A stretch of 17,425 nt of DNA from Pseudobacteriovorax sp. (lineage in GTDB: Bacteria; Bdellovibrionota_B; Oligoflexia; Oligoflexales; Oligoflexaceae), in contig JBNKNM010000109.1 of assembly GCA_050293845.1 (NCBI GenBank), positions 1-17,425 on the forward strand. Reading direction: 5' to 3'. Each line of letters opens with the position of its first letter. Position 1 is the first letter of the stretch. Position numbers and translations under genes: made by a program. The notes beneath the pieces are model-generated. The model had not been told where the DNA came from. It saw nothing but the letters and a program-made list of their open reading frames with translations, and did no database searches. Positions 1 through 17,425 of the stretch are shown in pieces.

Positions 1-1572
1 AAAAAGATGAGCACAAAACAATTCTATGATCCTGATGCGAATATTTTCCTGAACGGTCGTCAGGTTCAAGGAAGATGCCCTATTTTGAATTGTCCTTCAG
101 AAAAAGCATATGCAGATGAATGCTCCCTAGGTCATCAGTATATGCCAAATGAACTGCTGAACCCCCGCAGTACTTTAACGGGAAAAACCCCTGAGATGCG
201 TGATGTTACAAATTGGTTTGTCGACATGCCACGTTTCCGTCCCCTGATTAAAAAATGGACGGAACTCATCGAAAATGGAACTAAGAGTCGCAAGTTATAC
301 ATAAAGAATATCGATGAATTCTTAGAACCACCGATCATTCATGTAAAGCGTGATCAATTAGACGAGTTAAATACAATTACTTTACCTCCCCACCAAATTC
401 AGGAAGGTAAAACTAAGGCCCTGCGCATGGTGTTTGAAGACCTGGAAGAGAGAGAGCGCGCAGTTACTATTATGGCTGATAATGGCATCCGCTTTCGTAC
501 CGGCAAGACGTTGGTGCCGTTTCGATTAACAGGAAATATTGATTGGGGGCTCCCCGTTCCAACAATCGAAGATCTTTCAGACTTGACTTGGTGGGTATGG
601 CCTGAATCTTTGATTGCGCCGATATCCTTTACAGCAGCTCACTTGGAAGCAGTTGAGAGCCAAGAGACTTGGCAGGATTGGTGGTGCTCACCAGATTGTG
701 AAATTTTCCAGTTTATTGGTGAGGATAATGTATACTTCTATGGTGTTGCTGAAATCGCTATGTTTCTAGGGATGCAGGATCGAGATATAGCGAAGGTCAC
801 TGCAATTCCAGCTAAAGATCAGCTGCAACTACCGCAGCTTATTGTCAATAATCATCTACTTTTCTTAGATAAAAAGGCCAGCTCCAGCAGTGAGGTTAAA
901 CCTCCTTTAGCAAAAGAGTTACTCGAATATTACACCAGTGATCAACTTCGCGCACACTTTTTTGCCTTAGGCCTTGGGATCAAGAGCGTTAGTTTTAAAC
1001 CGAAACCGTTGAATCCACAATCCCCTGAAAAAGAAGGTGACCCCGTTTTAAAAGAAGGGAATCTATTAACTAACGTTTTCAATCGGGTCCTGCGCTCCTG
1101 TTTTTACACGGCGCAAAAATATACAGATGGTACGATTCCTTTAGGTGAAGTTTCTGAAGATGCTTTGCAACTAGCTACTTCAGCGGTTTTAAAATTTGAA
1201 CGCAGCATGTATCGCCAAGAATCTCATTTGGCAATGGCCTGCCTTGATAAGTATATTAGGGAAATCAGCAAGTTTTGGACCCATAAAAGTAAAGATGCTG
1301 ACCTGCAAAATCAAGGAACGCTTTGGGACCAGCTATTGCGCGATAGCTTCCACATGGTTCGTGTGGCAACCGTTCTTATGCATCCTATTGCACCTAATGG
1401 ATGCGAGATAGTTCGTCAGTACTTCAGGATGGACGAGAAAAATTTTTGGCGCTGGGAGCATATTCTAAAGCCTATAACAGAATTGATAACACCCCATCAT
1501 AAACTGCAACACCTGGAACCACGTACAGACTTTTTTAATAAGCACAAAAGTCAGCTAAACTTTTCGAAATAG
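1..1572 (+). CDS. metG: Methionyl-tRNA synthetase (class I), divergent type; 5' end lies outside the window
   Basis: Frame is open from base 1 (aaa aag atg) and the HIGH motif is absent, so the gene starts upstream. Recognisable MetRS segments: QFYDP..FL..R.V.G.CP..C....DEC (Zn knuckle), DWGLPVP, WVWPE (cf. YVWFD), FIGEDN (cf. FIGKDN), KASSS at the KMSKS position, and an anticodon-binding helical domain (GNLLTNVFNR...LMHPIAP). Confidence 0.85.
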   Translation, partial: KKMSTKQFYDPDANIFLNGRQVQGRCPILNCPSEKAYADECSLGHQYMPNELLNPRSTLTGKTPEMRDVTNWFVDMPRFRPLIKKWTELIENGTKSRKLYIKNIDEFLEPPIIHVKRDQLDELNTITLPPHQIQEGKTKALRMVFEDLEERERAVTIMADNGIRFRTGKTLVPFRLTGNIDWGLPVPTIEDLSDLTWWVWPESLIAPISFTAAHLEAVESQETWQDWWCSPDCEIFQFIGEDNVYFYGVAEIAMFLGMQDRDIAKVTAIPAKDQLQLPQLIVNNHLLFLDKKASSSSEVKPPLAKELLEYYTSDQLRAHFFALGLGIKSVSFKPKPLNPQSPEKEGDPVLKEGNLLTNVFNRVLRSCFYTAQKYTDGTIPLGEVSEDALQLATSAVLKFERSMYRQESHLAMACLDKYIREISKFWTHKSKDADLQNQGTLWDQLLRDSFHMVRVATVLMHPIAPNGCEIVRQYFRMDEKNFWRWEHILKPITELITPHHKLQHLEPRTDFFNKHKSQLNFSK

Positions 1573-1581
1573 ATGGGTAGC

Positions 1582-1612
1582 AGTTGGTGGGGAAACCTCC
1601 CTACCAACTTTT
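1582..1612. terminator. Intrinsic terminator hairpin between convergent genes
   Basis: AGTTGGTGGGGA-AACC-TCCCTACCAACT (12-bp stem with one G-U pair) followed by a T run, 9 nt after the metG stop and abutting the stop of the convergent minus-strand ORF. Confidence 0.75.
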
Positions 1613-2107
1613 CTATACGGTTTCACTAGCTTGACTTAATACAGAACGAAAAATGACGCGGCTCAACTCTTCAGCATCTTTTTGACTAAACCCGTTATCA
1701 TGCATCAGACGCTGTACACAGATATCAAAGTATGCCCGGCACTCGATCCCAAAATTACTAGTATCACGCCTGCATTCACCAACTAGAATTAAAGTATTTC
1801 CGCATAAACAGTCACGATGTTCAATAGCGTTACGATTGTGGTTCCTAACGGAGCTTTCTGCCGTTGAGCGTGTTTTGGTGGTTAATGCAATATACTGCTC
1901 ACGATTTTTATATTCCGTTCCACAAGCACGACATACTTTAGGAAAATGATTTTGAAAAGTAGCATCGTCTGTATACATTTGATTGAGGTCAGACTTTGGT
2001 ATAGCTTGACGCTTCACAGCAAGATTGATTTGATTTTCTAAATTCGCAATGAGGCTTTCCATACAACATATTTTAGCCTCAACTTTCTGCTCACACATTG
2101 TGTTCAT
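1613..2107 (-). CDS. Uncharacterised protein with CxxC / CxC motifs (probable Zn-binding domain) and an N-terminal coiled-coil-like segment
   Basis: ORF track 1613..2113. The likelier start is ATG at 2107, 8 nt after AAGGA. Contains FPKVCRACG...RDCLCGNTL...RRDTS..G...R..F. Confidence 0.75.
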   Translation of the reverse strand: MNTMCEQKVEAKICCMESLIANLENQINLAVKRQAIPKSDLNQMYTDDATFQNHFPKVCRACGTEYKNREQYIALTTKTRSTAESSVRNHNRNAIEHRDCLCGNTLILVGECRRDTSNFGIECRAYFDICVQRLMHDNGFSQKDAEELSRVIFRSVLSQASETV

Positions 2108-2396
2108 AATCACAGTCCTTCAGAAAGGATCGATAAGTAACATCTCGTAGTTTGCTTGGAATGACTTAAAGAAAATTTTCTGCACCTGATTTTTTATATA
2201 ATTTCAAAAAGTTAAGCCTACATTTGCACAAGGATTATTCCAAATATAGTATAAATAATTACAACAATAGGGATTCGACGAAAATTCCTAAAAATCTATG
2301 TAACTTAAAGGTATCTCATCTTTTTGGGATTATGCTACCTCCCTTAAATGGCATGTAAGATACTGAATTTACCCCTATAACCTGAGGACTTTTAAT

Positions 2397-3752
2397 GTGA
2401 AATGCTTAAATGTTATTTTTGGTGTCCTAATTGCCATTTATCCAGGTCAAATACTTGCCCAGATCAGAGTTTTAAATTTTGAAACCTTTTTAAGAGCGTA
2501 TCAAGCAAACTCATCAGAATTTATGACACAAAAACACAAGGTTTCGCAAAGTAAGATTAATAAGACAATTTCTGACACCAACTATACAAGTTCATTAAGC
2601 AGCAACTACTTTAGAAATCAGGCAAAAGACGAGCTACAGTACTATAGTTCTGATTCCTATAACATCGTCTTTGAGCAAAAGTTTGGAATGGGAACTTCCA
2701 TCTCTAATACAATTGAAAAACAAGGTTTTGGTGTGCTAACTCAATCGTCACAGTCACTGACCGTATCACAGTCGCTGTGGCGAAATGCATTCGGCCACGA
2801 GACAAAACTTAAGCAACAACTTAGTATGCAAGACCTTGCAGTCGCCCAAATTCAATACCAAAATGCTGCAATCGAAATTTGTGCAAAAGCCTCCGAAACT
2901 TATGTTTCTTTATTAATAAAGCAAGATCAGTTAGATAGAGGTACTACCAGACTTGCAGATTCCTCAAGAATTTTCGATAGGTATAAAAAATTGTACAGTA
3001 GAAATTTGGTTAGGAAAATGGACTTTCTTAATGCGAAAGATAACTATCTGAAGAGTAAGGAGGAGCAGGTAAAATTGGCCTCGGCATTTTACAACGAACT
3101 ATCTTCAATATCAGTTTTAATAAATCAGCCTGTAGATCGACTGGATAATTTTTCCTTAGAACCTCAGCATTACCCTCAATCCCAATCCTCCCTATTAAAA
3201 AGCCCTACCTTAATTGAAACCCAGAAACAAGTGTCAGCCGCAGAAACTTCCTTAGAACTCAGTAGTAATAGTGAACGTTCCGAACTGCAACTCTTTGTGA
3301 GAGGAGAGCGCATTACCAGTGAGTTAAAAAACAACCAAGAGGCAACCGCTTTTGGATTATCGATTGACATACCGATCGCCAATCCCCAGCTAAAAGCTAA
3401 AAGACTTTTAGCTTTAGAGAAACTAAAATTTGCTAAAATTAGCCAAGAAATAGCAAAGCGGCAAACGTTGCAAAATTTTTCTAAATTAGATTCCGAAATA
3501 AAAAATCTAAAGAAAGTACAACAAGAACGATCTCTTCAATTAGAAAATGCGCAAGTAAGACTTCAAGAGGCCAACAGATTACTCAATAACATTCAAATTG
3601 AAATAACTGACTATTTGAGATACAAGCAGGAGCTCAGAACCATCCAAGATACGATCTTTTCTGATAACGCTCGTATCTACCTAAAAAGCGTCCAAGCTCA
3701 AATATTGCACGGTATCTTCCCCCAACATTGCCAAGGTATTTTAGATGAATAA
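2397..3752 (+). CDS. TolC-family outer membrane efflux protein
   Basis: GTG start with GAGGA 8 nt upstream, signal peptide (MKCLNVIFGVLIAIYPGQILA), ~450 aa, duplicated helix/strand architecture (LTVSQSLWRN, FGLSIDIPI), and overlap with the start of an RND gene. Confidence 0.8.
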   Translation: MKCLNVIFGVLIAIYPGQILAQIRVLNFETFLRAYQANSSEFMTQKHKVSQSKINKTISDTNYTSSLSSNYFRNQAKDELQYYSSDSYNIVFEQKFGMGTSISNTIEKQGFGVLTQSSQSLTVSQSLWRNAFGHETKLKQQLSMQDLAVAQIQYQNAAIEICAKASETYVSLLIKQDQLDRGTTRLADSSRIFDRYKKLYSRNLVRKMDFLNAKDNYLKSKEEQVKLASAFYNELSSISVLINQPVDRLDNFSLEPQHYPQSQSSLLKSPTLIETQKQVSAAETSLELSSNSERSELQLFVRGERITSELKNNQEATAFGLSIDIPIANPQLKAKRLLALEKLKFAKISQEIAKRQTLQNFSKLDSEIKNLKKVQQERSLQLENAQVRLQEANRLLNNIQIEITDYLRYKQELRTIQDTIFSDNARIYLKSVQAQILHGIFPQHCQGILDE

Positions 3753-6700
3753 AATTATAGATTTTTTTATTAGGGAAACGTTCATCGTCAACCTGGTCTC
3801 AGGCTTCATTATTATAGTGGGTGGATTCGTATTCTGGCAAATGCACCGTGATATCCAACCTCCTATAGATGTACCCATAGTTTTTATTAACGCCACACTC
3901 CCAGGAGCTAGCCCCGAACAAGTAGAAAAGCAAGTAACTTTTCCGATTGAGGAAGCTCTTCTGGGCCTTCCTGAAATTAAGAAAATAAGTTCCAATTCAG
4001 GTACCAACCAAGCACACCTCAATGTCAGATTAAACACTTCCCCCGATAAATATCAAGACGTTGTAGAAAGTATTCGCGCTCGTCTCGACAGTATGCGATC
4101 CAGCCTCCCTCAAGAGCTAAAAACACTAGAAGTAAGCCCTTTTCTTGTAAATAAAGTCCCATTATTAGATCTCAATGTCATCAATGTTGATATCGAAAAT
4201 ACGGTACACCGTCAGTGGCTTCAAGCTATAAGTCAAAAAATACTATCAGCACCAGGAATTGTGGAAGCTAAGTTAATCATAAGCGATCGGCATATATTTA
4301 TTGATATTGATCGCGACAAGATTCAGGAATTTGAGATTTCTTTAGCCACAGTTCAACAAAAAATTGTAAATTTTTTAGAATTCAGTCCTATTGGCTCCTT
4401 CTATAAAAACGATCATATGGTTGTTGTTGAAATTTCTAATTCCCTAAAATCTCTGGAACCATTGAATAAAATTCCCATACGCAAAGCACTCGACGGTCAT
4501 ACTATTAACCTTGCTGAGATAGCTCAGATCGGGTATAGGAGTATTCGTTCTGATACTATCCGTAGGCTTAATGGAAAAACCTTTGCAAATATTGAAGTCA
4601 AAAAAGATTTGGAATCTGATGCTATAGATCTGAGTGAGCAATTAAATGACATCATTGATGAACTTAACAAAAATGCTCCAGAAGACATATCTATCGAGAT
4701 TTCGTATGATACGTCCCAACTCATCCGTAATCAATTAAAGGTCTTAACTTCCAGTGGTTTTCTAGGCTTTTTTTTGGTTTTTTTGGTCTTGTATTTTTTT
4801 CTTGGTTTCGGTCCAGCTATGATGACTGCTTTAGGATTACCTATTGCCTATCTAGGAACAATTATTTTTTTGGACTGGTTCGGTATAGGTATAGACCTTA
4901 TTTCCATCATTGGTATGATTATAGTTGTCGGTATTCTTGTTGATGATGCTATTATAGTTACTGAACGCTTTACATACATCGTGAGTAAAGGAACACCCGC
5001 CCGACAAGCTGCCCGTGAAGCAGCAGGTTCTCTCATCATTCCCGTATCAGGAACTATACTCACAACCATTGTCGCTTTTAGTCCTATGTTGGTCTTGGAT
5101 ACCGCTATCAGTCGTGTTTTCAAGGCTATTCCCTTAGTCATCATCTTTGCTTTGATTGTCAGCTGGATCGAATGTTTTTTTATACTACCCAATCACTTGC
5201 GTCATATAGTACTAAAACCGCAAAAAGCAGGACACAAGTCCGGGCTAGGAAAAAGATTAATCCAAGTATATGGAAGGAGCTTAAAATGGATCATCAAGTT
5301 AAGATACTTGGTAGTTACTGCTATGCTCCTATTCGCCTTTAGTACTATTTATATCGCTAAAGAAAAAATAATTTTCAATATGGACCTTAACTTTGGTGAT
5401 GTTTCAAAAACTTTGCTAATTGCAGTTAAGCAAGCCAATCGTGCAGAAAGTACTTACAAGCAAATAGAAGCTATTGAAGCATCACTCATTAACAAGGCCA
5501 TAGACTCTGATTTTGAAATTCATACCACAGTCGGACATGCCTGGCTTAATGGTAAAGAGATAAGAGATCCTCGATACGCAACCTTTAGAGTTTCCGGACA
5601 GGTAGATGGAGCTAATATAAAATCCATGCAAGAGAAAATAACTACCTTTATTAAATCGGAAATAGAACAAATCGATAAAAATTCCTTTGATAGGATTGAA
5701 ATTATTGATTCCCAGGGTCAAGATGATATTAACAAAGAAAACTTAGTCTCCATTTCAATAGAAGGTCGTGATCGCGTCTCATTTGATAAAATAGCGGAAG
5801 ATATCGAAGCAGCTATTAAGGACATTGACGGGCTGGAAGCCACCTATCTCAAACTCAACGATGAAGGGGAAGTCTGGCGATTTGCCCCGAATCTTCAAGA
5901 TACCGCACTATATGGAGTGTCTCTCAGAGAGATAGCTCAGCAAATTTCAAGTTTGTTTTCACCAATTGAAATCTCCCAAGGGCGATTCCAAGGCACAAAT
6001 ACCAAAGTTTATACGGAAGTAGTCAAAGATGAACCATGGCGATTTTCTGAGTTAAACAATATTCCGTTATTAACAGGACGAAATACGCAAATTAAACTTG
6101 GACAGGTAGGAAACTGGACAAAGGGTAAAATCGACACCGCTATTTACCATGAGGATGGGCAACGACACTTTTCTTTTGATATTCGTTTTAACCCTAAAAA
6201 GACTGACATTGAGAAATTTACAAAATTGGTGGAAAAACAAATTACTTCTGTTAAATCATCAAATCCAGACTACAGAATACTGGTGGAAAATGCCAACGTC
6301 CAAGCAAGTGAAGCCAAAGAATGGGCAAAAAAAATACTTATAGTGTGTATTGCTTTGATCCTTTTGGTGATGGCTATCATTTTACGATCCCTCATTCAAC
6401 CTCTATTGATAGGACTCAGTATTCCCATTGGTATATTTGGTATAGTATGGGCATTATATTTTCATGGGTATGATCTGACTTTTCTGGGCATCATCGGAGT
6501 TATTGGAGTTGCAGGTGTTGCTGTCAATGACTCCCTGATCATGTTATATGCCATCAATTCTGCTATGAAAGCCAATCCCCTGACCCCCCAAGTTGCAGCT
6601 ATTGAGGCTGCTTGCTCACGATTTAGACCTATATGGCTAACGACTCTTACTACCATTTCAGGAGTTCTGCCTATGGCTTATGGCATCGGAGGCTCCATTG

Positions 6701-6873
6701 GTTATACAGAACCCATGGCATTTTCCATTGGCTGGGGAATTCTAAGTGCCACTTTTGCAGCTTTAGTGATCATTCCTGCCTGTAATTTTATTCTGATCGA
6801 TTTACATAGTATAATTCACTGTTTTCTAAGATGGCTTAAGCCAAAAGCCAAAAGCCAAAAGCCTAAAGCCTAA
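3745..6873 (+). CDS. RND-family efflux permease (AcrB/AcrD/AcrF superfamily)
   Basis: 1042 aa. Motifs LPGASPEQVEKQVTFPIEE, TM4 GILVDDAIIVTE, GTILTTIVAFSPM, GVAVNDSLIM and RFRPIWLTTLTT..G..PMA, with the 1+5 TM pattern duplicated. Confidence 0.95.
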   Translation: MNKIIDFFIRETFIVNLVSGFIIIVGGFVFWQMHRDIQPPIDVPIVFINATLPGASPEQVEKQVTFPIEEALLGLPEIKKISSNSGTNQAHLNVRLNTSPDKYQDVVESIRARLDSMRSSLPQELKTLEVSPFLVNKVPLLDLNVINVDIENTVHRQWLQAISQKILSAPGIVEAKLIISDRHIFIDIDRDKIQEFEISLATVQQKIVNFLEFSPIGSFYKNDHMVVVEISNSLKSLEPLNKIPIRKALDGHTINLAEIAQIGYRSIRSDTIRRLNGKTFANIEVKKDLESDAIDLSEQLNDIIDELNKNAPEDISIEISYDTSQLIRNQLKVLTSSGFLGFFLVFLVLYFFLGFGPAMMTALGLPIAYLGTIIFLDWFGIGIDLISIIGMIIVVGILVDDAIIVTERFTYIVSKGTPARQAAREAAGSLIIPVSGTILTTIVAFSPMLVLDTAISRVFKAIPLVIIFALIVSWIECFFILPNHLRHIVLKPQKAGHKSGLGKRLIQVYGRSLKWIIKLRYLVVTAMLLFAFSTIYIAKEKIIFNMDLNFGDVSKTLLIAVKQANRAESTYKQIEAIEASLINKAIDSDFEIHTTVGHAWLNGKEIRDPRYATFRVSGQVDGANIKSMQEKITTFIKSEIEQIDKNSFDRIEIIDSQGQDDINKENLVSISIEGRDRVSFDKIAEDIEAAIKDIDGLEATYLKLNDEGEVWRFAPNLQDTALYGVSLREIAQQISSLFSPIEISQGRFQGTNTKVYTEVVKDEPWRFSELNNIPLLTGRNTQIKLGQVGNWTKGKIDTAIYHEDGQRHFSFDIRFNPKKTDIEKFTKLVEKQITSVKSSNPDYRILVENANVQASEAKEWAKKILIVCIALILLVMAIILRSLIQPLLIGLSIPIGIFGIVWALYFHGYDLTFLGIIGVIGVAGVAVNDSLIMLYAINSAMKANPLTPQVAAIEAACSRFRPIWLTTLTTISGVLPMAYGIGGSIGYTEPMAFSIGWGILSATFAALVIIPACNFILIDLHSIIHCFLRWLKPKAKSQKPKA

Positions 6874-6879
6874 AGCCTA
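6838..6879 (+). repeat. 7-bp tandem repeat, 6 copies: (AAGCCAA)3(AAGCCTA)3, spanning the RND stop codon
   Basis: Read directly: aagccaa aagccaa aagccaa aagccta aagccta aagccta. The TAA stop at 6871-6873 is formed at a unit junction. Confidence 0.9.
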
Positions 6880-7102
6880 AAAAAACAATATGGGCATTAG
6901 GAGCAACAGAGTCTCAAGCAAACCTTCCGGGAAAACTCAAAATTAAGATTTTCAGATTCCCGTTCAAGATTATAGAAATCATTCTTTTAAATTTTTTCTT
7001 TATTTTAGATCATTTAGAAATTCTGAATTTCTAATTACAAAGGCTCTTTAGTAAGGTTCCTACAAAACAATTAACAGTTTGATATTTTAAAGGGATTTAA
7101 GT

Positions 7103-7603
7103 ATGAAGTTTTTTCTAAGTGTAATTGCTTTTTGCGGCTTATTTTCTAACACAGTCTTCGCAAACCAGGTCATGGTGAACACTGATTTAGTTGAGATTCT
7201 TAGTGAGCCACAGGATGACTTAATCCACACCGTTTCGCTAAATCTGGATGAGAATGGGGATATAGTGGAAGTCATTCGCACAAGCGAAGAAGATGAGCTG
7301 GTCATACCAAGTGAAGACCTTATTGAAGGGGAAGTCGTGCTTGCCAGATCCCAAGACAGAGATGCTGTATTTTTGAGCTGTCCGGGCTGTACTGCTGACT
7401 TAGGAGGTGAATTAGTCGTGCGTTATATTTCCAACGGTATTTTTAATACTTATGATGAATTACACATGAACCTTGTCCGCACAGGCAACGATTGGACACT
7501 ATTCTCTGTAGATGGAGAAGAAGTTATTAATCTGCGCTTGGTTTCACGAACCATCTTCGGCCAAGTCATAGGCATTCGAGAAATCCAAATCAATTCTTAT
7601 TAA
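7103..7603 (+). CDS. Secreted acidic hypothetical protein, probably beta-rich
   Basis: Signal peptide MKFFLSVIAFCGLFSNTVFA, AAGGGA upstream, D/E-rich composition, one CxxC (CPGC). No family recognised. Confidence 0.75.
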   Translation: MKFFLSVIAFCGLFSNTVFANQVMVNTDLVEILSEPQDDLIHTVSLNLDENGDIVEVIRTSEEDELVIPSEDLIEGEVVLARSQDRDAVFLSCPGCTADLGGELVVRYISNGIFNTYDELHMNLVRTGNDWTLFSVDGEEVINLRLVSRTIFGQVIGIREIQINSY

Positions 7604-7628
7604 TCTATTGTTAGACTGGTCCGTCTAT

Positions 7629-9380
7629 TTACTCTTTATAGTCGGCCAGTGAAATAACCTTAGGCTTCCACTTACCTATTTTAGCTTGGCGCCAAGAAAT
7701 AGTAACTGGCTGGTTATCAAAGGCGACATTTTTAATGAGACGAGATCTCAACTTCACTCTGTCTGGAGAAGAAGGTTCGTAGATTGCTCGCTCCACATCA
7801 CTAGGTGTAAATAGATCTAAAGTTAATCTATCTCTTTGCAAGATATCAAAATAACCATCACCTAATTCATGATATTTCAAGTCAATTTTTTTCAATACCC
7901 AGTAATCGAAATAATCATCGCTGGTATGGAGCAAGTACTTTTTTGTCACCCAATCAATGCGACCAATAAGCAATTCCGGATTTTTCTTGAGAGTTTCTAA
8001 AATCTCTTCCCACATCCTGACAATCTCGTGACTTTCAATGGCGACTGTTTGTTCCTTTAAATAAAGCTTCGCCCGTTTCAAATACCATTCTTGGATTTCA
8101 AGCGCTGTCAGTTTTCCTCCCTGAGTTAGCTGGACTTTGGCACTAAGGCTAAGATCTCTGGTAATTGTACGCAGCGCAGATATAGGATGAGTTAATCGGG
8201 GAGCATCCTTCAAATAATGATCGTTCGCCATTCTTACAATGAGGGAGGTAACTCCAACTTTCAAAAACTCGGCTATATGGGCTCTATTGGAGTCTGAAAA
8301 GGCAACTTGTAATCTCTGGGATTTACGAAGCAATTGTGTCCAAGCACTGGTGCGAAAAAGAAAAAGCTCCCAAATAGCTAACTCATACTCCTTGATGAGG
8401 TTACCACAATCAAACAGTGGCTTGTCCATTCTATGAATGGACGTTCGCTTGTAGCTATTGATTGCTTGAGATTTTTCTGAAAAAATAAAACTACCATCTT
8501 TCAGTAAACTCCCAGCTCCGGTATATATAATGCGAGAAATGATGTGAGCATGAATCTGCTCTTGCTGCGAACGAAAAGCGAATGCGTTATAAATCATAAT
8601 AAGTGGCTTATAACTCAGCCAAAACAGGGGATAAAATACTGAGTACTCCAACATCAGAAGGAACTCTTCTGTATCGTCAGTTTCAAAATTAAATCGTCCC
8701 AGTCCCGTTTTCATCATACCCTTAATCGTTGGCATAGCAAAAATTTTGTCGGTAACTCTGACTAGAACTTGCTTCGATCCCACCAAAACAATCATTTCTA
8801 AAAAAACTTTGACTGAAAAAATCAATAAAATAAATGGAATCAAACATATCAAATATACCAGCTTCAGGCTGATGGCTATGGGAATATAGGAAATGAGCAA
8901 GACTTGCATTACCCCGTAACGCATCCCAGAAGCTAAGTCACTATCATAGTTTTCCTGACTGCCGTAGGTATTTCCTTCGTAGTCGCGGCAATTTTTTATG
9001 AGACTTAACTCACCTTCAAACCCATCCATAGCCATCATTTCTGCAGCGATGGGGGTTGCTTTTTTTAAAAGTTCTTCTTGGGCACGTTGATAAAGAACAA
9101 GCTCATGGGAAGAATGACATTCAGGGGTAGCGCACTCTATGAGCCCTTTTCTCAAGCTCTGGGGATGGTGTTCGTAATAAATAGCCCCACCATTTTGAAC
9201 AAAAAATTGATCCTGAATAAAGCTTCGTTTTCCCGGCTTTGTCTTGACAATGGTCCGAATGGCTTGCGATAGGTAATCAAAGATAACTTTATTGCCAGGA
9301 TGCTCAGAAAAAGCCTTGGGAACAAAGCGAACGGCTAATTCTGTTTCCTGCCCTAAAAGATAGCTTTTACTACTCGCCAC
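7629..9380 (-). CDS. PafA/Dop-family (Pup ligase-like, carboxylate-amine ligase fold) protein with a hydrophobic membrane insertion
   Basis: Ordered match to PafA motifs: LGQETE (GIETE), FVQNGGAIYYE (FLRNGARLYLD), ECATPEC (EYATAEC), LIKN..D..GNTYGSQENY (LFKNNTD..GNSYGCHENY), SRIIYTGAG, RLQVAFSDSN (RLHVIVGDSN), LKVGVTSL, IDWVTK, IDLKYHEL, R..LR..LI, TISW. Start is GTG 9380 (AAGGTGG upstream) or TTG 9383 as in the ORF track. Confidence 0.9.
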   Translation of the reverse strand: MASSKSYLLGQETELAVRFVPKAFSEHPGNKVIFDYLSQAIRTIVKTKPGKRSFIQDQFFVQNGGAIYYEHHPQSLRKGLIECATPECHSSHELVLYQRAQEELLKKATPIAAEMMAMDGFEGELSLIKNCRDYEGNTYGSQENYDSDLASGMRYGVMQVLLISYIPIAISLKLVYLICLIPFILLIFSVKVFLEMIVLVGSKQVLVRVTDKIFAMPTIKGMMKTGLGRFNFETDDTEEFLLMLEYSVFYPLFWLSYKPLIMIYNAFAFRSQQEQIHAHIISRIIYTGAGSLLKDGSFIFSEKSQAINSYKRTSIHRMDKPLFDCGNLIKEYELAIWELFLFRTSAWTQLLRKSQRLQVAFSDSNRAHIAEFLKVGVTSLIVRMANDHYLKDAPRLTHPISALRTITRDLSLSAKVQLTQGGKLTALEIQEWYLKRAKLYLKEQTVAIESHEIVRMWEEILETLKKNPELLIGRIDWVTKKYLLHTSDDYFDYWVLKKIDLKYHELGDGYFDILQRDRLTLDLFTPSDVERAIYEPSSPDRVKLRSRLIKNVAFDNQPVTISWRQAKIGKWKPKVISLADYKE

Positions 9381-9519
9381 CAAGATCCACCTTAGCCGAT
9401 TTTACATATTCTTCCGCCTTTGTCTGTGCATCATCCTGAACCGCTCGCAGTGCAAGAGACAAGTTATTGTTATCACATGGTGATTCGACGAACAGAGCTG
9501 TCAGTGTGTTAGATTTCAT
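9370..9519 (-). CDS. Pup/UBact-like small modifier protein, 49 aa, C-terminal GGE (not in the ORF track)
   Basis: Manual translation gives MKSNTLTALFVESPCDNNNLSLALRAVQDDAQTKAEEYVKSAKVDLGGE*. AAGGAG lies 6 nt before the ATG. The C-terminus resembles Pup (..AEDFVRAYVQKGGQ/E), and its last codons overlap the start of the PafA-like gene. Confidence 0.85.
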   Translation of the reverse strand: MKSNTLTALFVESPCDNNNLSLALRAVQDDAQTKAEEYVKSAKVDLGGE

Positions 9520-9525
9520 AGCGGA

Positions 9526-9531
9526 CTCCTT
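9526..9531 (-). promoter_or_regulatory. Shine-Dalgarno sequence of the Pup-like ORF
   Basis: Minus strand reads AAGGAG-tccgct-ATG. Confidence 0.8.
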
Positions 9532-9690
9532 CGAGTAAGACAATGTTCAACCTAACTATCGGTCGTAAATGTCGGGCACAATAGCTTTTTTTCCAGGATA
9601 CAAGGCCTTACCCATCTACCAGTAACGTAAATATCTAATTTAACAAGCTTCCAAGGTTTGTCACCATATTACAAAAAAATATTCTTTAGT

Positions 9691-9724
9691 TAAAGTAAAA
9701 GGCGCTATAGCGCCTTTTACTTTA
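9691..9724 (-). terminator. Perfect 34-bp palindrome acting as the intrinsic terminator of the collagen-like gene
   Basis: TAAAGTAAAAGGCGCTA|TAGCGCCTTTTACTTTA. It includes the TAA stop (9722-9724) and reads as a GC core plus T-tract on either strand. Confidence 0.8.
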
Positions 9725-12415
9725 TCTCTCGGTGAATGCCTCACCCGCAGCACTGCTAACCTCATGAATATATTTCAATATAATCAGCAAGTTAGAGTTT
9801 GTTGCGGCTGCATCTGTCACCCTAGCTTCGATATTGCCATTGGCAAAACGGATATCGACACCCTGTCCGCTATTTAGGGGGCGCGTAATACCTTCAGCAT
9901 CCGCGAAGGTTCCCGATATTTGCTGGATGGTTTCCGGTCCATCCCAAGGCTGCAAGGTAACAAAACTGCCAACTGTACTTGGAGCTTGACTTGAAATCAT
10001 TTGGCTCACCACAGGAGATCCCGCAATCATTGCAGTAGGCTGATAATATTGAGGTCCAATTTTAAGCAAAGGACCTTCGCTGCATATATACAAAGAATTT
10101 GTAGCTGTGCAGGGAGCGATATCACCGTCTTGAGCAAAGTTACCAGCCGGGCCTTCAGGACCCTGTGGTCCCGTCTCTCCTCGCGGGCCACGGTCTCCTT
10201 TGGGACCCACATCTCCCTGTGGTCCTGCAGGCCCTATTTGGCCCGACTCACCACGTGGACCCCGTTCTCCTGGAGGACCTGGCTCCCCTTGGGGACCTTC
10301 GAGACCCTCGGGACCTTCGGGACCCACTGGTCCTCTAGGACCTTCGGGACCTGCAGGACCATCGAAACCTATTTCACCTTTGGGTCCCCGTGGGCCTTCG
10401 GGACCCTCAGGACCTTCGGGACCTTCCAACCCTTCGGGACCTTGTGGTCCCCTTGGACCCACCGGTCCGGCTGGACCCTGCTCCCCAGGAGGTCCAACAT
10501 CACCTAACGGACCAGCAGGACCTACGGGACCTTCGAGGCCTGCTGGCCCTGTATCACCAATGTCACCTTTAGCACCTGGCGGACCTTCGGGGCCTGGCTC
10601 TCCTACGTATCCGCGAGGACCTTGAGGACCAGGGTCTCCCTGATCACCCTGAGGACCTTGCAATCCCGTTTCCCCTTGCTCTCCCTGGGGGCCAGCAGGG
10701 CCAGCAGGTCCAGTAGGGCCAATTTTTCCCTCAGGACCGCGAGGGCCTATAGGACCTTCGGGACCTTCGGGACCATCGAGACCTTGCAATCCACGAGGTC
10801 CCACGGCCCCCTCATCACCTTTAATGCCAGGATCTCCTGTATCTCCCTTTGGCCCTGCGGGACCAATGGGACCTTCATCACCTTTTTCTCCTTGAGGACC
10901 TTCAGGACCTTCTAGACCTATCAAACCTTGGGGGCCAGCAGGACCCTGATCACCAGGATCTCCTTTAGGACCACGTTCACCAATAGATCCCTGGGGACCT
11001 TCAGGACCCGGCAAGCCTTCAGGCCCTGGAGGACCATCAGCACCGATATCACCTCGGGGACCCACGGGACCTTGAAGTCCTTGGGGGCCTGGTAAGCCTT
11101 CATCTCCAGCGGGACCAGCGGGACCTGTGGGACCAATGGGGCCCTCAGGGCCTTCGGGACCTTCAGGACCTTCAGGACCTGCGTCACCCTCCGGACCAAT
11201 GAAACCACGCGGACCTTGCAATCCGACATCTCCTTTTTCCCCTTGAGGACCGACCGGTCCGCGATCTCCCGTATCACCTTTTGGACCCTGCAATCCCTGG
11301 AGACCTTGGAGTCCGATGTCTCCTTGGGGTCCTATAGGGCCTTCAGGCCCCTCATCACCTTTTTCCCCAGGCTCTCCTTGCAGACCTTCATATCCTTGGG
11401 GACCACGAGGACCTTGCGGACCTTGCGGCCCCACATCTCCTTGAGGACCTATGGGACCCACAGGCCCCCCATCCCCGGTGTCACCCTTGTCTCCAATGGC
11501 ACCTTGCGGACCTTGCGGACCAACCTCCCCTTGATATCCCCGGGGCCCTATTTCTCCTTGGGGGCCACGATCTCCTGGATCTCCCTGATAACCTCGGGGT
11601 CCGGTAAGCCCCCTCGGACCTCGTGGCCCCCTGGGACCAAGAGGGCCCTCGATACCCTGCGGACCCTGAGGCCCTAAGGGTCCTGTAGCACCAGTCTGCC
11701 CCCGATTCCCCCGCGGGCCTGCTGGTCCTTGAGGTCCTTCGGGGCCTTCTGTCCCACGAGGTCCCGAGGGGCCAGGGATACCCTCTGCTAATAAACTTCC
11801 CAGCGGCACTGTGTGAGAAATATTGCCACTTGTTAAACGTAATCCAACCTTGCGATCATTGACTTCATCCTGGGATATAGTTCGCACCTCGCCTAAAAAA
11901 AGCAGGGTCGAACAGGAACTATTGACGGTGATGGGCGTTTCATCCCCCATCCATAATATGTCCCCGGTTTCTCGGTTTACGATAGAGACTCCTAACGACA
12001 GGGACTGGGTACAGTTTGCAATACCACGACAAGGACATATCACTCCTAAATCAACGATTGCGGACTTTTTGAGAGGATCAACTTCAGCTACTACTGAGCC
12101 CAAAGACCTTGGTTCAAAAACATCTACAATATCGTTGTTGTTTAGATCAAACACAACTAGTTCTGTATCAGCAAAAATATTACCGGATACAGTTACAATG
12201 TCATCATTTTCAGCAATGTCCAAACCCTGGAGGTCCAACACAGCGGCAGTATCGGGAGTTCCGTTAACAAAAGCCTTTATAGCTGCCTCAACAGTCATTG
12301 CTGTTTGATTTGCAACGGTGAATTCAAAGCTATAAATCTTTTCTGCTGCTAACAGTGGGGGATCGCTGCGACCCAAGCACCACAAGATAGCAGAGAGCCA
12401 TATTAACATTCTCAA
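9722..12415 (-). CDS. Secreted collagen-like protein: N-terminal globular domain, long Gly-X-Y helix, C-terminal globular domain
   Basis: The ORF track starts at 12529, but AGGAGGAG lies 7 nt before TTG at 12415 (or ATG 12409), giving a signal-peptide-like N-terminus ([19 protein letters not shown]). About 897 aa. Confidence 0.9.
10145..11782 (-). repeat. Collagen Gly-X-Y repeat: 182 consecutive triplets (9-bp periodicity)
   Basis: 1638 nt from GIP-GPS-GPR to GPQ-GPE-GPA with no break in Gly periodicity. Dominated by [12 protein letters not shown] and locally GC-rich. Confidence 0.95.
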
Positions 12416-12561
12416 GGCTCTACTCCTCCTGGTAAAATGTACGTCTAAAAAAGGTTTTAGGTATACTATCCAAGACAGATCAGCTAAGCAATAAAGTATA
12501 GGTAAATAGAATGTTCGTAGAGTAGACAAATTAAGACGGGGAGTGTCTTTGCTTACTCTGT

Positions 12562-13029
12562 TTAGGATTTTTTATACTGGCAGTTTTTCACCTGACAAAC
12601 ACCAAATAGATCTAAGGAGTGGTGGGTTAGCTTAATACCATAGGTTGCTGCAATTTCTTCCTGCAACATTTCAATTTTGTCGTTTTCAAATTCGATGACA
12701 CGACTACATGTCGTACAAATCAAATGATCGTGATGCTGATTAGGTTTATTGAGCTCAAACACCGCCCGTCCATCAGCAAACTGTTTCTGTTCTACTAAAC
12801 CCGCATCTTTTAGAAGATTAAGAGTACGATAGATAGTAGCCATTCCGGCATTACAATCCTGCTCTTTTGCATATTGATGCAGTTCTTCTGCTGCCACATG
12901 ATCGTTCATTTCGATAAAGTATTCAATAACCTGATTCCGCTGTTTACTGTGCTTTAGTTTCGCCTTAGCAAGATATTCATTAAGTCGTGACCAAAACCAT
13001 TCAAATTCATTTGTCTGCTTTCTTACCAT
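12562..13029 (-). CDS. Fur-family metal-responsive transcriptional regulator (Fur/Zur/PerR family)
   Basis: [47 protein letters not shown]....C. ATG at 13029 with AGGT 7 nt upstream. Confidence 0.93.
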
Positions 13030-13072
13030 CAATATGACCTACGCAATAACAACATACTCAACCACATTTCTT

Positions 13073-13146
13073 AGTATAGGCCAGATTAAAAACGCCGTCT
13101 ATTAAAGATGACCAAGCTTGTCAAGATGCAAAGTTTTGGATAAAAC
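13073..13146. promoter_or_regulatory. Candidate back-to-back sigma70-type promoters for the Fur-family gene (-) and the CDF gene (+)
   Basis: Minus strand: TAGACG (13101-13096)-17 nt-TATACT (13078-13073). Plus strand: TTGTCA (13118-13123)-17 nt-TAAAAC (13141-13146). Pattern match only. Confidence 0.45.
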
Positions 13147-13194
13147 CACAGCGTACCGAAATCGACGATCCCGATAACTTTGAAAGTTGCTGCT

Positions 13195-14082
13195 ATGGCC
13201 TCTCATCACCACCATGAACACCATATTGATAATGACTCATCTATTAAAAGGCTCTTTTTTGCTTTCCTCTTGAATCTAAGCTTTGCAGTCGTTGAATTTA
13301 TTGGTGGCATTATATTTCAAAGCATGTCCGTGGTCGCCGATGCTATTCATGACCTAGGTGATTCCCTTAGCTTAGGGCTCGCCCTGATACTACAAAAGAA
13401 GTCTCAAAAGAGTGCCACAAGACGTTTTACTTATGGCTATAAAAGGTACTCCACCGCTGGTGCACTCATTAACAGCTTAATTCTAATTGTCGGGTCAGCG
13501 ATCGTTGTTTGGGAGTCCATTCCTCGTTTTTTTCAGACGAACGAATTACCAGATTACCAAGGCATGATGGGATTAGCCTTGATAGGAATAGCTGTGAACT
13601 CTTTAGCCGCATGGAAGCTATCTGTGGGACACAGTCACAACGAGAAAGTCATTAGCCTGCACTTGCTGGAAGATATTCTAGGCTGGGTAGCCGTTCTTGT
13701 AGGAAGTATTCTCATTCACTTCTTTGAATGGCTTTGGATTGATCCCTTACTTGCCTGTCTTATTGCGCTATTTATCTTAAAAAATGTTTGGCATAGTTTT
13801 ACGACAACCGCACGCATTTTCTTACAATCTATTCCCGACAATATCGATATGGATCATATAGAAGACGCCATTAGTAATATAGAAGGGGTAAAGCAATTAA
13901 CCAATATCCATGCTTGGACATTAGATGGTGACGACCATGTTTGCACTTGCACTATCGTGCCGAGCGTTCCCAGCAGCTCCTATTCCGCAGTAAAAGCTCA
14001 AATTCGCAGTTACTTACGACAATACCGCTTCAAACATGTCACCATTGAAGTTGCCACAAATTCCGATGAAGTTTGCCATTAA
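13195..14082 (+). CDS. Cation diffusion facilitator (CzcD/ZitB-type Zn/Cd/Co exporter)
   Basis: His-rich N-terminus (SHHHHEHH), ADAIHDLGD (TM2 HxxxD), FTYGYKR, HLLED (TM5 HxxxD), WIDPL, C-terminal HAWTLDG..HVTIE. ATG 13195 is preferred over TTG 13180. Confidence 0.93.
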   Translation: MASHHHHEHHIDNDSSIKRLFFAFLLNLSFAVVEFIGGIIFQSMSVVADAIHDLGDSLSLGLALILQKKSQKSATRRFTYGYKRYSTAGALINSLILIVGSAIVVWESIPRFFQTNELPDYQGMMGLALIGIAVNSLAAWKLSVGHSHNEKVISLHLLEDILGWVAVLVGSILIHFFEWLWIDPLLACLIALFILKNVWHSFTTTARIFLQSIPDNIDMDHIEDAISNIEGVKQLTNIHAWTLDGDDHVCTCTIVPSVPSSSYSAVKAQIRSYLRQYRFKHVTIEVATNSDEVCH

Positions 14083-14489
14083 TCTCCTATGGAAGCATAG
14101 TGAGGCAGCTTCACACCTGCAAATGAATTAGCCGTTTTACTTTATTTAGGGTTTTACGCGATACATTACTCAAAATCGTGCTTCCGATAATTTAGTTCCA
14201 TAAAGTCGGGAAATTGAACGCCAGCAAAATTGACACCGTAAAAATAGTTACGTCATTTTTCATTTTTTTACAGATTTTTATTTTATTTTTTTCCTTTATG
14301 AGATATTCCTAAATAGCGAGTCGCATTTTGATCTTTTTTATAAATTTCATTGATATTTATAAAAGAGAGATTAAAAAAAGACTCCTTAAATGATGCAGAG
14401 TTTTCCAAACTGTGCATTTTTTTAAACGCCATTCTAGCCTGACCGGCCAGATAAGGCGAGCTTCAAGTTCACTTCAACGAGGTATTAAC

Positions 14490-17195
14490 ATGAGTACAAA
14501 ATTTGGTGACGCTTCAATAGCGGGAGCCCTGATCCTGGCGATGACAGGTGGTGGCTATGCCCAAGGAACACAAAAAGATTCCATAGAAAAAGTGGAGAAA
14601 ATTTCCGTTGTTGGCTCTAGGATTAAAAGGATCGACATCGAAGGAACAACACCCATAAAGATTATCGACAGAGAAGAGATAGAAAATAGCGGTCTTGTTA
14701 GTATAGGCGACATTATTCGAAAATCCGCTCTCGCTAGTCCTACAGGAAACTTTTCAGGATCTTCCAGATTTATTGCGGCTGGCTCTTCTAGCATCGACTT
14801 ACTCGGCCTTGGTAGTGATCGCACGTTGATTCTATTAAATGGCAAACGCTTACCACCATCAGCAAATGGTGGACTAAATTCAGTTAACATTGACAATATT
14901 CCCACAGGATTAGTGGAGCGTATTGAAATCCTTTCAGGAGGGTCTTCAGCCGTTTATGGAGCTGATGCTGTTGGGGGTGTTGTTAACGTTGTTCTTAAAA
15001 AGGATATGAGTGGTTCTGAAGTATCTGCCTTCAGATCCGTTACTAATGAAGGTGGCGGCGATGAAACAGAGCTAAGCGCTTCCTATGGTGGCAAGCTAAC
15101 AGATAAATTAAGCCTAACGTTTTCCCTTGGCTATCGGGGTCGTTCTCGTCTTTTTAAAAACAATCGTGATCTTTCGTTCGGAGAAGCGCCACGGGATTTT
15201 ACTGTAACAAACCCACCTGAAGGCACTTATAGCTATAGACCCATTGATTTGGACGCTACCGACAGTATATTTCTTGACTGGCAACCCAGTAGCAACTGCC
15301 CCGAGCAGAACCGTGTAGCGACTGTTCCCACAAGCCCTAATAATGTTTACTGTGCAGGTCCGCGAAGCGGCCCGCCTACAGAATTAATTCCCCGAAAAGA
15401 AGAATTCCACGGCTCTCTCTACCTAGACTATGACATCTCTGATGATTGGAAGCTTAGCGGCCTAGTAAACGGCAGTAGCAGCTATAACTCGTCTAACACT
15501 GGAAATTTCTTAAGCTATATCGATAGTCCTTACGACAACGCGAATGTTCTGGTCACTGGCGATAGGGCCCGCGAATTAGGAATAGATGTTTCTGACGATA
15601 TCGAATATGTGCAACTTATCACCAAAAGTTTTGAATCTCCTGATAGAAAATCCCGCGCCCGCAATACTTCTTTCGGCGGCATCGCGAATCTTGAGGGAAG
15701 CTTGGCCAATGACTGGAATATTGAATTCAGCAGTTCCTACTTTAGAACTAAAGGAACCCGCGAAGGTGTTAACTATATCAACTCTGATAAACTCTATAAC
15801 ATCGTCGTCAATCCTAACGACGAAAACGGCGCGAACCCTGCTTGGCTTGCCATTGACCCCAACCGTGACAACAGCCTGCTCTTAGACGTATTTGATGGTT
15901 TAAAATCTAGTGAGATCAATAGTCATCTCTCTGCAGATGCCTTTCTTAGCAATGAATTCTTTGCATTGCCGGGTGGCCTCGTTTCCGCAGGCTTTGGTGC
16001 CTCTGTTACAAATGAGACCTACAATCAAATAGCTGACCAGAAAGACCAGCAATTCAATGCTGTCAACACTCCTGTTTTTACGGGATCTTTCGCTTCAGAA
16101 GGCAAAGGGGATAGGCAAGTCGGCGCACTCTTTGGTGAGTTCCTAGCTCCTGTAACAAGCCAAATTGATGTTGAAGGTGCCCTACGTTTTGATTCCTACA
16201 GCGACTTTGGTGATTCCCTCAACTTTGGCTTAGGAACTAAAGCCGAACTTATTCCAGGCTTAGCTGTCCGTGGACGCGTCGCCTCCAGCTATAAAGCCCC
16301 ACCCCTTAGTTTCATCCACAGAAAAGGTTCTGGAGGTTACTTAACTATCCGCGATACCGTCAATTGTCAGAGAGAGAACGATGCTGGCCGAACATGTGAT
16401 CCATCCTCTCCTACTCGCCAAGTGCTCGTAGCCGATTCCGGCAATAAGGACCTTAATCCCGAAACAGGTCTTAGTCAGACTCTTGGACTCATCTTTGAAC
16501 CCAGCTCAAACTTAAACCTAATCGGTGACTTTTATGCTATTGATTTAAAAGACACCTATCAACAAGATGACATTCAGGAGCTAGCTGATAAGTGGTACAA
16601 GCAAAACCCCGGCAATACACAAGGTGGCCAAATCGATGACAATGGTATAGAGGTTGATAAGGACGGTGTTATTACACAAATCCTCAGACCCTATCGAAAC
16701 TTAGGGAAAATCAGAGTTAGAGCGACCTCTCTGCAAGCCAATTTCTCTCAGAAGTTTGGAGGGCTAAAACTCGGAGCCAGCTCAAGATATTTCCGGATGT
16801 TATCCTATAAGGTCCAAGAAACTGTAGACGCTCCTGTGAGAGAGCAGGTTGGCTACGATGGTGTTCCAGATTGGAGGGTTAGTAATCAGATAAACTTTGG
16901 CTTTGGAAGCCACACCATTACTCTTTACTCTAGTACTATTGCAGGCCAAAGTATCGATCCAGAACTAGAAACAGCTGCTAGTAAGGATACCCATATAGAT
17001 AAGTACACCGAATATGATGTGAGCTACAACTGGGATACACCTTGGGACTCCAACCTAGTATTAGGTGTGAATAATGTTCTGAACACTATTGGAGGAATCG
17101 ATAATGGTACCTTCAATAAATCAGAGAGTATTAATACTAGCCTATATAGCTACAGTGGGCGAACATTCTTCGCAAGGTTGACCCAGAGATTTTAA
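14490..17195 (+). CDS. TonB-dependent outer membrane receptor
   Basis: GAGGT before ATG 14490, signal peptide ending GYA, TonB-box region EKISVVGSRIKR, plug motifs LGSDRTLILLNGKR and IP..LVERIEILSGGSSAVYGADAVGGVVNVVLKK, LNPETG, GVNNVLN...GRTFF, C-terminal Phe. Confidence 0.95.
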   Translation: MSTKFGDASIAGALILAMTGGGYAQGTQKDSIEKVEKISVVGSRIKRIDIEGTTPIKIIDREEIENSGLVSIGDIIRKSALASPTGNFSGSSRFIAAGSSSIDLLGLGSDRTLILLNGKRLPPSANGGLNSVNIDNIPTGLVERIEILSGGSSAVYGADAVGGVVNVVLKKDMSGSEVSAFRSVTNEGGGDETELSASYGGKLTDKLSLTFSLGYRGRSRLFKNNRDLSFGEAPRDFTVTNPPEGTYSYRPIDLDATDSIFLDWQPSSNCPEQNRVATVPTSPNNVYCAGPRSGPPTELIPRKEEFHGSLYLDYDISDDWKLSGLVNGSSSYNSSNTGNFLSYIDSPYDNANVLVTGDRARELGIDVSDDIEYVQLITKSFESPDRKSRARNTSFGGIANLEGSLANDWNIEFSSSYFRTKGTREGVNYINSDKLYNIVVNPNDENGANPAWLAIDPNRDNSLLLDVFDGLKSSEINSHLSADAFLSNEFFALPGGLVSAGFGASVTNETYNQIADQKDQQFNAVNTPVFTGSFASEGKGDRQVGALFGEFLAPVTSQIDVEGALRFDSYSDFGDSLNFGLGTKAELIPGLAVRGRVASSYKAPPLSFIHRKGSGGYLTIRDTVNCQRENDAGRTCDPSSPTRQVLVADSGNKDLNPETGLSQTLGLIFEPSSNLNLIGDFYAIDLKDTYQQDDIQELADKWYKQNPGNTQGGQIDDNGIEVDKDGVITQILRPYRNLGKIRVRATSLQANFSQKFGGLKLGASSRYFRMLSYKVQETVDAPVREQVGYDGVPDWRVSNQINFGFGSHTITLYSSTIAGQSIDPELETAASKDTHIDKYTEYDVSYNWDTPWDSNLVLGVNNVLNTIGGIDNGTFNKSESINTSLYSYSGRTFFARLTQRF

Positions 17196-17232
17196 ACTAA
17201 TAGTTTAGAAAACGAAGCCAACATAATAAACA

Positions 17233-17265
17233 AAGGAGGGCCCTCTAGGGCCCTCCTTCTTTTTT
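17233..17265 (+). terminator. Intrinsic terminator after the TonB-dependent receptor
   Basis: AAGGAGGGCCC-TCTA-GGGCCCTCCTT followed by CTTTTTT. Confidence 0.88.
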
Positions 17266-17425
17266 AGCACTTTTCCCACAAAAGACTCCATTTTTGAAAG
17301 AATAGAGAGCTTCTTGACTAGCAATGATAACGGATAAACTTGAGATATTTATATTAATAGCATGGAAACCACTCAAGCTGGATTCTAATGTCACCAGACT
17401 GTTTAACTACGGCAGATCCATTGCC

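Follow-up and report, generated by a model that had tools for sequence, protein, structure and literature searches.

The window analysed here is the whole of a 17,425-nucleotide stretch of DNA from Pseudobacteriovorax sp. (assembly GCA_050293845.1, contig JBNKNM010000109.1, positions 1 to 17,425), and on its minus strand it carries a gene for a 49-residue Pup-like peptide ending in Gly-Gly-Glu together with an overlapping gene for an enzyme of the PafA/Dop family, referred to below as the ligase. The pair probably forms a translationally coupled, self-contained two-gene module for proteasome-independent, membrane-associated pupylation. This reading is supported directly by the reality of the small gene, its strict coupling to the ligase, the PafA/Dop fold of the enzyme, a hydrophobic insert within it, the predicted binding mode of the peptide and the finding of no proteasome partners. 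The elements that carry the argument are the following.

9370 to 9519, minus strand: gene for the Pup-like peptide, 49 amino acids by translation, with the ATG at 9517-9519 and the stop codon at 9370-9372.
7629 to 9383, minus strand: gene for the PafA/Dop-family enzyme, 584 amino acids from the TTG at 9383 (PF03136, E 1.8e-69, 235 bits).
9526 to 9531, minus strand: ribosome-binding site AAGGAG, 6 nucleotides 5' of the ATG of the peptide gene, from the sequence.

Read on the minus strand, 9370-9519 translates as MKSNTLTALFVESPCDNNNLSLALRAVQDDAQTKAEEYVKSAKVDLGGE and then a stop, with GGE at the C-terminus. The original prediction had described a 49-residue, GGE-ending open reading frame (ORF) with an AAGGAG ribosome-binding site and had given no strand; the translation bears it out, and the strand is minus. 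The ORF had also been said to be missing from the supplied ORF track, where its frame is listed only as 9370-9543, 57 residues from an upstream TTG and below the 60-residue default. At the position of the ribosome-binding site, relatives have AGGAG (G001) or AAGGAG (G002). The ligase gene begins inside the peptide gene: TTG 9381-9383 and GTG 9378-9380 both lie within the peptide's Leu-Gly-Gly codons, and the GTG, inside the Gly-Gly codons, is the start conserved in relatives, giving a gene overlap of 11-14 nucleotides. Two relatives have a stop at the TTG position and a start at the GTG, and in a third the ligase ATG overlaps the peptide stop codon. Such an overlap of the peptide and ligase frames is the usual signature of translational coupling.

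The 49-residue ORF is a real, conserved small gene. The ligase is carried by 5 of 41 relatives and by 9 of 131 genomes of the phylum, and a GGE-ending ORF of 47-54 residues lies directly 5' of it in all eight genomes of the phylum in which the 5' end of the ligase is on the contig, the ninth ligase starting at a contig end. The reverse test, in which a profile of the peptide was run against the 131 genomes, found 8 genomes at E <= 1.5e-9, and the ligase is present in all 8. One further weak match of this profile (E 0.001), inside a 215-residue frame, was taken as chance. When metagenomes were scanned with a 32-sequence ligase alignment, 334 stretches proved to encode a ligase relative, and the best 80 of these were kept; 5 with a match starting deep inside the ligase and 3 with fewer than 150 nucleotides upstream were then taken out, leaving 72 loci. 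A clean GGE-ending ORF abuts the ligase at 70 of these 72, the exceptions being L083, which has the motif without a stop, and L091, which has none. Loss of the ORF from relatives that keep the ligase had been named beforehand as the result that would speak against the gene; the ORF is kept, in the eight genomes and in these 70 metagenome loci.

At the first exception (L083:285-), ...VPEGGE is not followed by a stop, and the coverage of the contig is about 2.5x. A European Nucleotide Archive contig, P0037, holds a peptide-ligase fusion that reads ...YVKSCKGGFGWR... and then ligase, and resembles a one-base frameshift. These two run-through cases are either assembly errors or natural fusions.

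In a check proposed in the original prediction, pairwise comparison of the last 8 codons across four genomes gave 25 synonymous and 0 non-synonymous codon differences. Among relatives the peptide is the faster-diverging partner, with identities of 41-49% compared with 55-66% for the ligase, and the AKVDLGGE C-terminus is kept despite this divergence. A word-based search with the peptide alignment gave 15 proteins of 47-49 residues, all with the GGE end, and a HMMER search of 1.84 billion representatives gave 93 matches at E <= 0.001, among them 83 proteins of 30-74 residues ending in GGE. Nine long proteins (973-3678 residues) among the 93, which match the N-terminal half of the peptide only or have no single passing stretch, were set aside as chance; the one other match is the P0037 fusion. 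The homologues belong to no database family; they are labelled 'hypothetical protein' where they are named, and otherwise the gene is not called. The consensus of the 83 short representatives is ...IR-x-DA-xxx-P-xx-YL-x-[ED]-[ST]-x-VP-x-GGE, so the AKVDLGGE found here differs from the family's usual VP-x-GGE. GGE is invariant in all 77 aligned family members, whereas in their N-terminal half only M1 reaches 90% conservation; among Oligoflexales members, that end is fairly conserved as MK-x-N-x-L-x-A. The peptide is probably largely unstructured on its own. Its net charge is -3 with 16% Asp and Glu, as against -13 and 30% for the Pup of Nonomuraea gerenzanensis, in keeping with the earlier description of the peptide as less acidic than Pup. 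The Cys reported in that description is Cys15, which is common to only 1 of 14 other close relatives.

The enzyme has the fold of PafA and Dop. Its AlphaFold2 model (predicted local distance difference test, pLDDT, 90.3; predicted template modelling score, pTM, 0.89) found Dop (7oxy, E 3.4e-27) and PafA (4bjr, E 6e-26) as its best PDB matches in Foldseek, and in sequence it is equally distant from the two (Dop 93.5 bits, PafA 93.3 bits). It carries the GhExE ATP motif as G11-Q-E13-T-E15, and a set of 32 clade members shows no variation at E13, E15, E71, Q143 and E144. Named members of the clade belong to Chondromyces crocatus, Myxococcota, Leptospiraceae, Acidobacteriota (Vicinamibacteria) and Oligoflexales. 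Hecht et al. (2020) report planctomycete single-copy homologues of both enzymes and took them as their outgroup, which fits a third clade; the placement of the present clade is based on model scores and that paper, with one clear PafA available for comparison.

The defining feature of the enzyme, overlooked by the original prediction, is a hydrophobic insert.

8529 to 8936, minus strand: hydrophobic helical insert, residues about 150-285 of the enzyme, from hydropathy and the model.

About 130 extra residues stand between a strand ending at 149 and the conserved KSQRLQV segment. In the AlphaFold2 model, strand 144-149 directly precedes the insert helices of 153-283, which span 153-165, 167-203, 206-214, 218-230, 237-268 and 271-283. 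The hydropathy profile has a 48-residue stretch at 157-204 with a mean peak of 2.64. All 82 clade members (P0017-P0098) have a comparable stretch, its peak being 2.1 or higher, and none of nine canonical PafA/Dop proteins has a stretch of the insert type, two of them having a single weak window of 1.63-1.82. Given this hydrophobic insert, the enzyme is predicted to be membrane-anchored.

Co-folding of the ligase with the peptide, each with its own alignment, had been proposed in the original prediction, and the outcome is in its favour: the interaction prediction score from aligned errors (ipSAE) was 0.85 (0.84, 0.86 and 0.85 in the runs), compared with 0.00 for the best of 3 controls. Of 157 solved complexes, 116 attain the ipSAE mark applied, as do 2 of 215 mismatched pairs. 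The pLDDT of the partner is at least 68, and the runs share at least 68% of contacts. Residues 19-49 of the peptide contact ligase residues 15-21 (E15 included), 71-73, 125-143 and 473-520, the last of which make up the C-terminal-domain groove in the co-fold; peptide residues 35-49 lie on the beta-sheet cradle, and residues 1-18 make no confident contact. The earlier claim of a genuine Pup-like peptide that ends in Glu and is coupled to a PafA/Dop-family enzyme is upheld.

Partners of the kind used by canonical pupylation were sought around the pair and in the genome, which amounts to 6.68 Mb in 741 contigs and is 96.4% complete. The genome holds one PF03136 gene, and no second PafA/Dop and no separate Dop were found in it, consistent with the earlier argument that a terminal Glu needs no Dop deamidation and fits the lack of dop. 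A PF00227 search of the genome, positive in 10 of 14 control genomes, gave no match, neither proteasome nor HslV, and the best match to the Mpa model in the genome reached 143.7 bits, the cut-off being 504.75. The window contains no proteasome genes, and no same-strand gene follows the ligase here. Across 79 loci, there is no conserved third gene around the pair and no protease or AAA gene linked to it. The idea of the original prediction that the N-terminus recruits another reader is left unsupported because the N-terminus is unconserved across the family; residues 1-18 are also without contact in the co-fold, and no reader gene is linked.

In 10 of 68 loci, an ORF downstream of the ligase has a hydrophobic segment; the locus in this window is not among the ten. 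Membrane proteins lie directly 3' of the ligase at L041, L051 and L066 and at L020 and L021, and are of two types, one of about 180 residues with 5-6 hydrophobic segments and one of 406 residues with 9-11. In some lineages these proteins may represent the linkage described by Iyer, Burroughs and Aravind (2008).

As to the chemistry, the targets and the consequence of tagging, we infer that the C-terminal 30 or so residues of the peptide would bind the Pup groove of the PafA/Dop-family enzyme, with the terminal Gly-Gly-Glu lying in the beta-sheet cradle where the enzyme binds ATP. In the manner of PafA, it would phosphorylate the gamma-carboxylate of the terminal Glu, and the peptide would then be transferred to an amine, most likely that of a protein lysine. 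The targets would lie on the inner side of the cytoplasmic membrane or close to it, since the hydrophobic insert would hold the enzyme there. With Glu already at the end of the peptide, a deamidase would be superfluous, and removal of the tag may fall to this same enzyme. Because no Mpa or proteasome was found, the tag would be a regulatory mark or would feed another pathway instead of serving as a proteasome signal. A bolder version, wholly proteasome-free, would have a single membrane-embedded enzyme attach the tag as well as take it off, with Glu rather than Asp as its catalytic base, and mark lysines of membrane proteins or a lipid amine; taken as a whole, it is a long shot.

Several points weigh against the reading of the pair as a pupylation module, which draws on sequence and predicted structure. 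The first concern the peptide, which on hidden Markov model (HMM) criteria, as applied to its sequence, is outside the Pup family. PF05639 and TIGR03687, the models for Pup, do not match it at E <= 1, and at E <= 10 the Pup models match 0 of 15 and 0 of 77 relatives. The UBact model NF033388 has no match in the genome at E <= 10 and matches 0 of 77 family members; scoring against the Pup and UBact models, as the original prediction had proposed, accordingly leaves the peptide outside both. BLASTP of the peptide against the canonical Pup used as comparator, that of Nonomuraea gerenzanensis (...AEEFVRSYVQKGGE), gave no match, while PF05639 recognized this Pup at E 1.5e-30 as a positive control. 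A six-frame TIGR03687 search of the genome did not pick up the peptide, with a Corynebacterium control above the cut-off. Scans of the peptide with Pfam, NCBIfam and PADLOC gave no match, the ESM Atlas gave no usable match, and the peptide and family profiles found only chance-level matches among PDB sequences, with no Pup chain. The hhalign comparison of the 77-member profile with Nonomuraea Pup covers 33 columns, from peptide residues 16-49 and Pup residues 37-69 up to the C-terminus, with an E of 7.9e-5 and a probability of only 61%, and the homology between peptide and Pup is weak. This alignment, which also counts in favour of a relation to Pup, pairs AEEYVKS with AEEFVRS and places a one-residue gap in Pup before GG, in agreement with the earlier observation that AEEYVKS parallels a Pup helix with one extra residue before GG. 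As a separate observation, a Nonomuraea Dop-like frame that adjoins canonical Pup (L104:5950-7503, plus strand) ends ...ALTGGE.

The remaining points against it concern the enzyme, the co-fold and the genome. The equivalog scores are 166.8 for PafA (TIGR03686, cut-off 551.3) and 143.3 for Dop (TIGR03688, cut-off 492.3), and six other clade members are likewise far under both cut-offs; with scores this low, the two activities, ligase and hydrolase, cannot be told apart by sequence. Where A. cellulolyticus Dop has its catalytic Asp, D94, the present enzyme has Glu71, in an N-terminal alignment that is weak, at 13.9 bits. Glu71 is a conservative change from Asp and is invariant in the 32 clade members. 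In Table 1 of Hecht et al. (2020), D94 is flanked by V93, H95 and A96, and the present enzyme has His72 after the catalytic position, as in Dop. The membrane passes of the insert are predicted at anything from 2 to 4. Complexes of PafA and of Dop with Pup have already been solved, so the success of the co-fold may reflect likeness to them, and in a 96% complete genome in 741 contigs the missing partners count as not found rather than as proven absent.

Four other explanations of the pair were weighed. Degradation by another route, in which the tag is a signal read by a protease other than the Mpa-proteasome, such as the membrane AAA protease FtsH, is unlikely; it is a form of the other-reader idea of the original prediction. 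A membrane location would suit a membrane protease, the genome has generic AAA proteins (the best scoring 143.7 bits, to the AAA core of the Mpa model), and the N-terminal MK-x-N-x-L-x-A that a reader might use is fairly conserved within the Oligoflexales. Over the 77 members, however, the N-terminal half is unconserved, with residues 1-18 short and variable, and no protease or AAA gene is linked to the pair in the 79 loci.

The same chemistry might also be directed at a non-protein amine, such as the head group of phosphatidylethanolamine or an envelope precursor, and would then yield a lipid-anchored peptide. The predicted membrane location of the enzyme would agree with such an acceptor, as would the lack of a linked protein partner or reader gene, and the superfamily does join carboxylates to small amines, with YbdK and GCS as distant structural matches of this enzyme. 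Nothing here points to a lipid, however; the proposal is pure conjecture, and protein lysines are what PafA and Dop, the closest characterized relatives, act on. This acceptor is considered quite improbable. If it were true, the product would have its parallel in lipid-anchored ubiquitin-like tags, of which it would be the bacterial version.

Still less probable is that the enzyme is not a peptide ligase at all, being instead a hydrolase or deamidase, or that the peptide is a bound but unconjugated regulator or substrate mimic. The nearly equal scores with the PafA and Dop models fit this explanation, and so does His72, which follows the catalytic position as in Dop (Hecht et al. 2020, Table 1). 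Against it, a hydrolase would have nothing to remove in a genome without a ligase, a peptide ending in Glu needs no deamidation, and GGE is invariant across the family. That the ORF arose by chance in the leader of the ligase gene and codes for nothing would suit its shortness and its lack of a Pfam or NCBIfam match, but is refuted by a protein conserved across phyla (83 short GGE-ending representatives), a conserved ribosome-binding site, the 25 synonymous against 0 non-synonymous differences in the last 8 codons and the strict co-occurrence with the ligase.

Beyond the module itself, the spacer upstream of the peptide gene is poorly conserved apart from one motif.

9557 to 9592, minus strand: AAAAAA..CTA..G-N16-CCGATA, from columns invariant in 4 genomes.

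This motif is a possible promoter, and its CCGATA box may be comparable to sigma-28-type -10 elements. Directly upstream lies a gene for a 935-residue collagen-repeat protein with a hydrophobic N-terminus (9722-12529, minus strand; PF01391 E 1.2e-84). The cluster of such collagen-like neighbours covers 6 loci; they stand upstream in at least G002 and G005 and are absent from the wider metagenome loci. As the collagen-like gene is conserved only in the four Pseudobacteriovoracaceae genomes, it is taken as synteny of the lineage and as lying outside the module. Further upstream, 12562-17195 is a metal-homeostasis cluster with Fur (PF01475), a cation-efflux protein (PF01545) and a TonB-dependent receptor. 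On the other side of the pair, an RND efflux pair occupies 2397-6873, and a methionyl-tRNA synthetase gene runs off the start of the window. Two ORFs of 166 residues, at 1613-2113 on the minus strand and 7103-7603 on the plus strand, have no family match; the latter begins with what resembles a signal peptide and is convergent with the ligase gene. A reading of the locus as a defence system was rejected, as PADLOC gave no match.

Pupylation is understood almost wholly as a route to the actinobacterial proteasome, and a module for which no proteasome partners were found and whose ligase is predicted at the membrane departs from that view. It is widespread, with a ligase relative encoded in 334 metagenome stretches and the peptide present in 83 representative clusters. 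The pair is also carried by the cultured Pseudobacteriovorax antillogorgiicola, so that the role of a Pup-like tag without a proteasome is directly testable. On the bolder version given above, the clade may also be near the ancestral state of the pathway, single-copy homologues being the outgroup that Hecht et al. (2020) chose for both enzymes, PafA and Dop.

Compared with the actinobacterial system, the tags have the C-terminal Gly-Gly-Glu in common, the C-terminal 33 residues of the peptide align weakly with the ligase-binding half of Pup, and the binding groove predicted by the co-fold is the same as that of Pup on PafA and Dop. The peptide is shorter than actinobacterial Pup, far less acidic, and has one extra residue before GG. 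The enzyme shares the PafA/Dop fold and the GhExE motif, whereas here a single enzyme with a membrane insert has Glu at the position of the catalytic Asp, and no Dop, Mpa or proteasome was found in this genome. Corynebacterium glutamicum resembles the present host in having a Pup ligase without a 20S proteasome (PF03136 positive, PF00227 negative); its Pup is canonical, with TIGR03687 above the cut-off, and its PafA is soluble and accompanied by Dop and an Mpa-type ATPase. UBact and the present peptide are both small Pup-like modifiers of Gram-negative bacteria whose genes adjoin PafA/Dop-type genes, and NF033388 matches 0 of 77 members of the family described here. UBact loci include genes for Mpa and the proteasome, neither of which turned up in this genome.

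The closest counterpart is the system predicted by Iyer, Burroughs and Aravind (2008, Biol Direct 3:45). That paper reports Pup orthologues and Pup ligases from Plesiocystis pacifica and Rhodopirellula baltica; it describes a ligase whose transmembrane insert follows core strand 4 and which has no linkage to the proteasome, and it proposes, as a computational prediction, pupylation of membrane-associated proteins. In the literature on this variant, in which subscription journals were thinly covered, nothing later than this 2008 prediction and nothing experimental was found. The claim of the original prediction that the peptide represents a distinct modifier family stands insofar as the peptide is outside the Pup and UBact HMMs, but its novelty was overstated, as such peptides had already been counted among Pup orthologues by Iyer et al. 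(2008). Both systems have a small ORF ending in G[EQ] next to a single PafA-family gene, the transmembrane insert after core strand 4 recurs here as a prediction, and linkage to proteasome genes is likewise lacking. The differences are that their linked membrane-protein gene is absent here, such a gene being found in just 10 of the 68 loci, and that the host belongs to the Oligoflexales. From this architecture, the peptide family is probably the same as that of Iyer et al. (2008), and since the architecture was already set out in their paper, the pair in this window is an Oligoflexales example of the kind of system they predicted.

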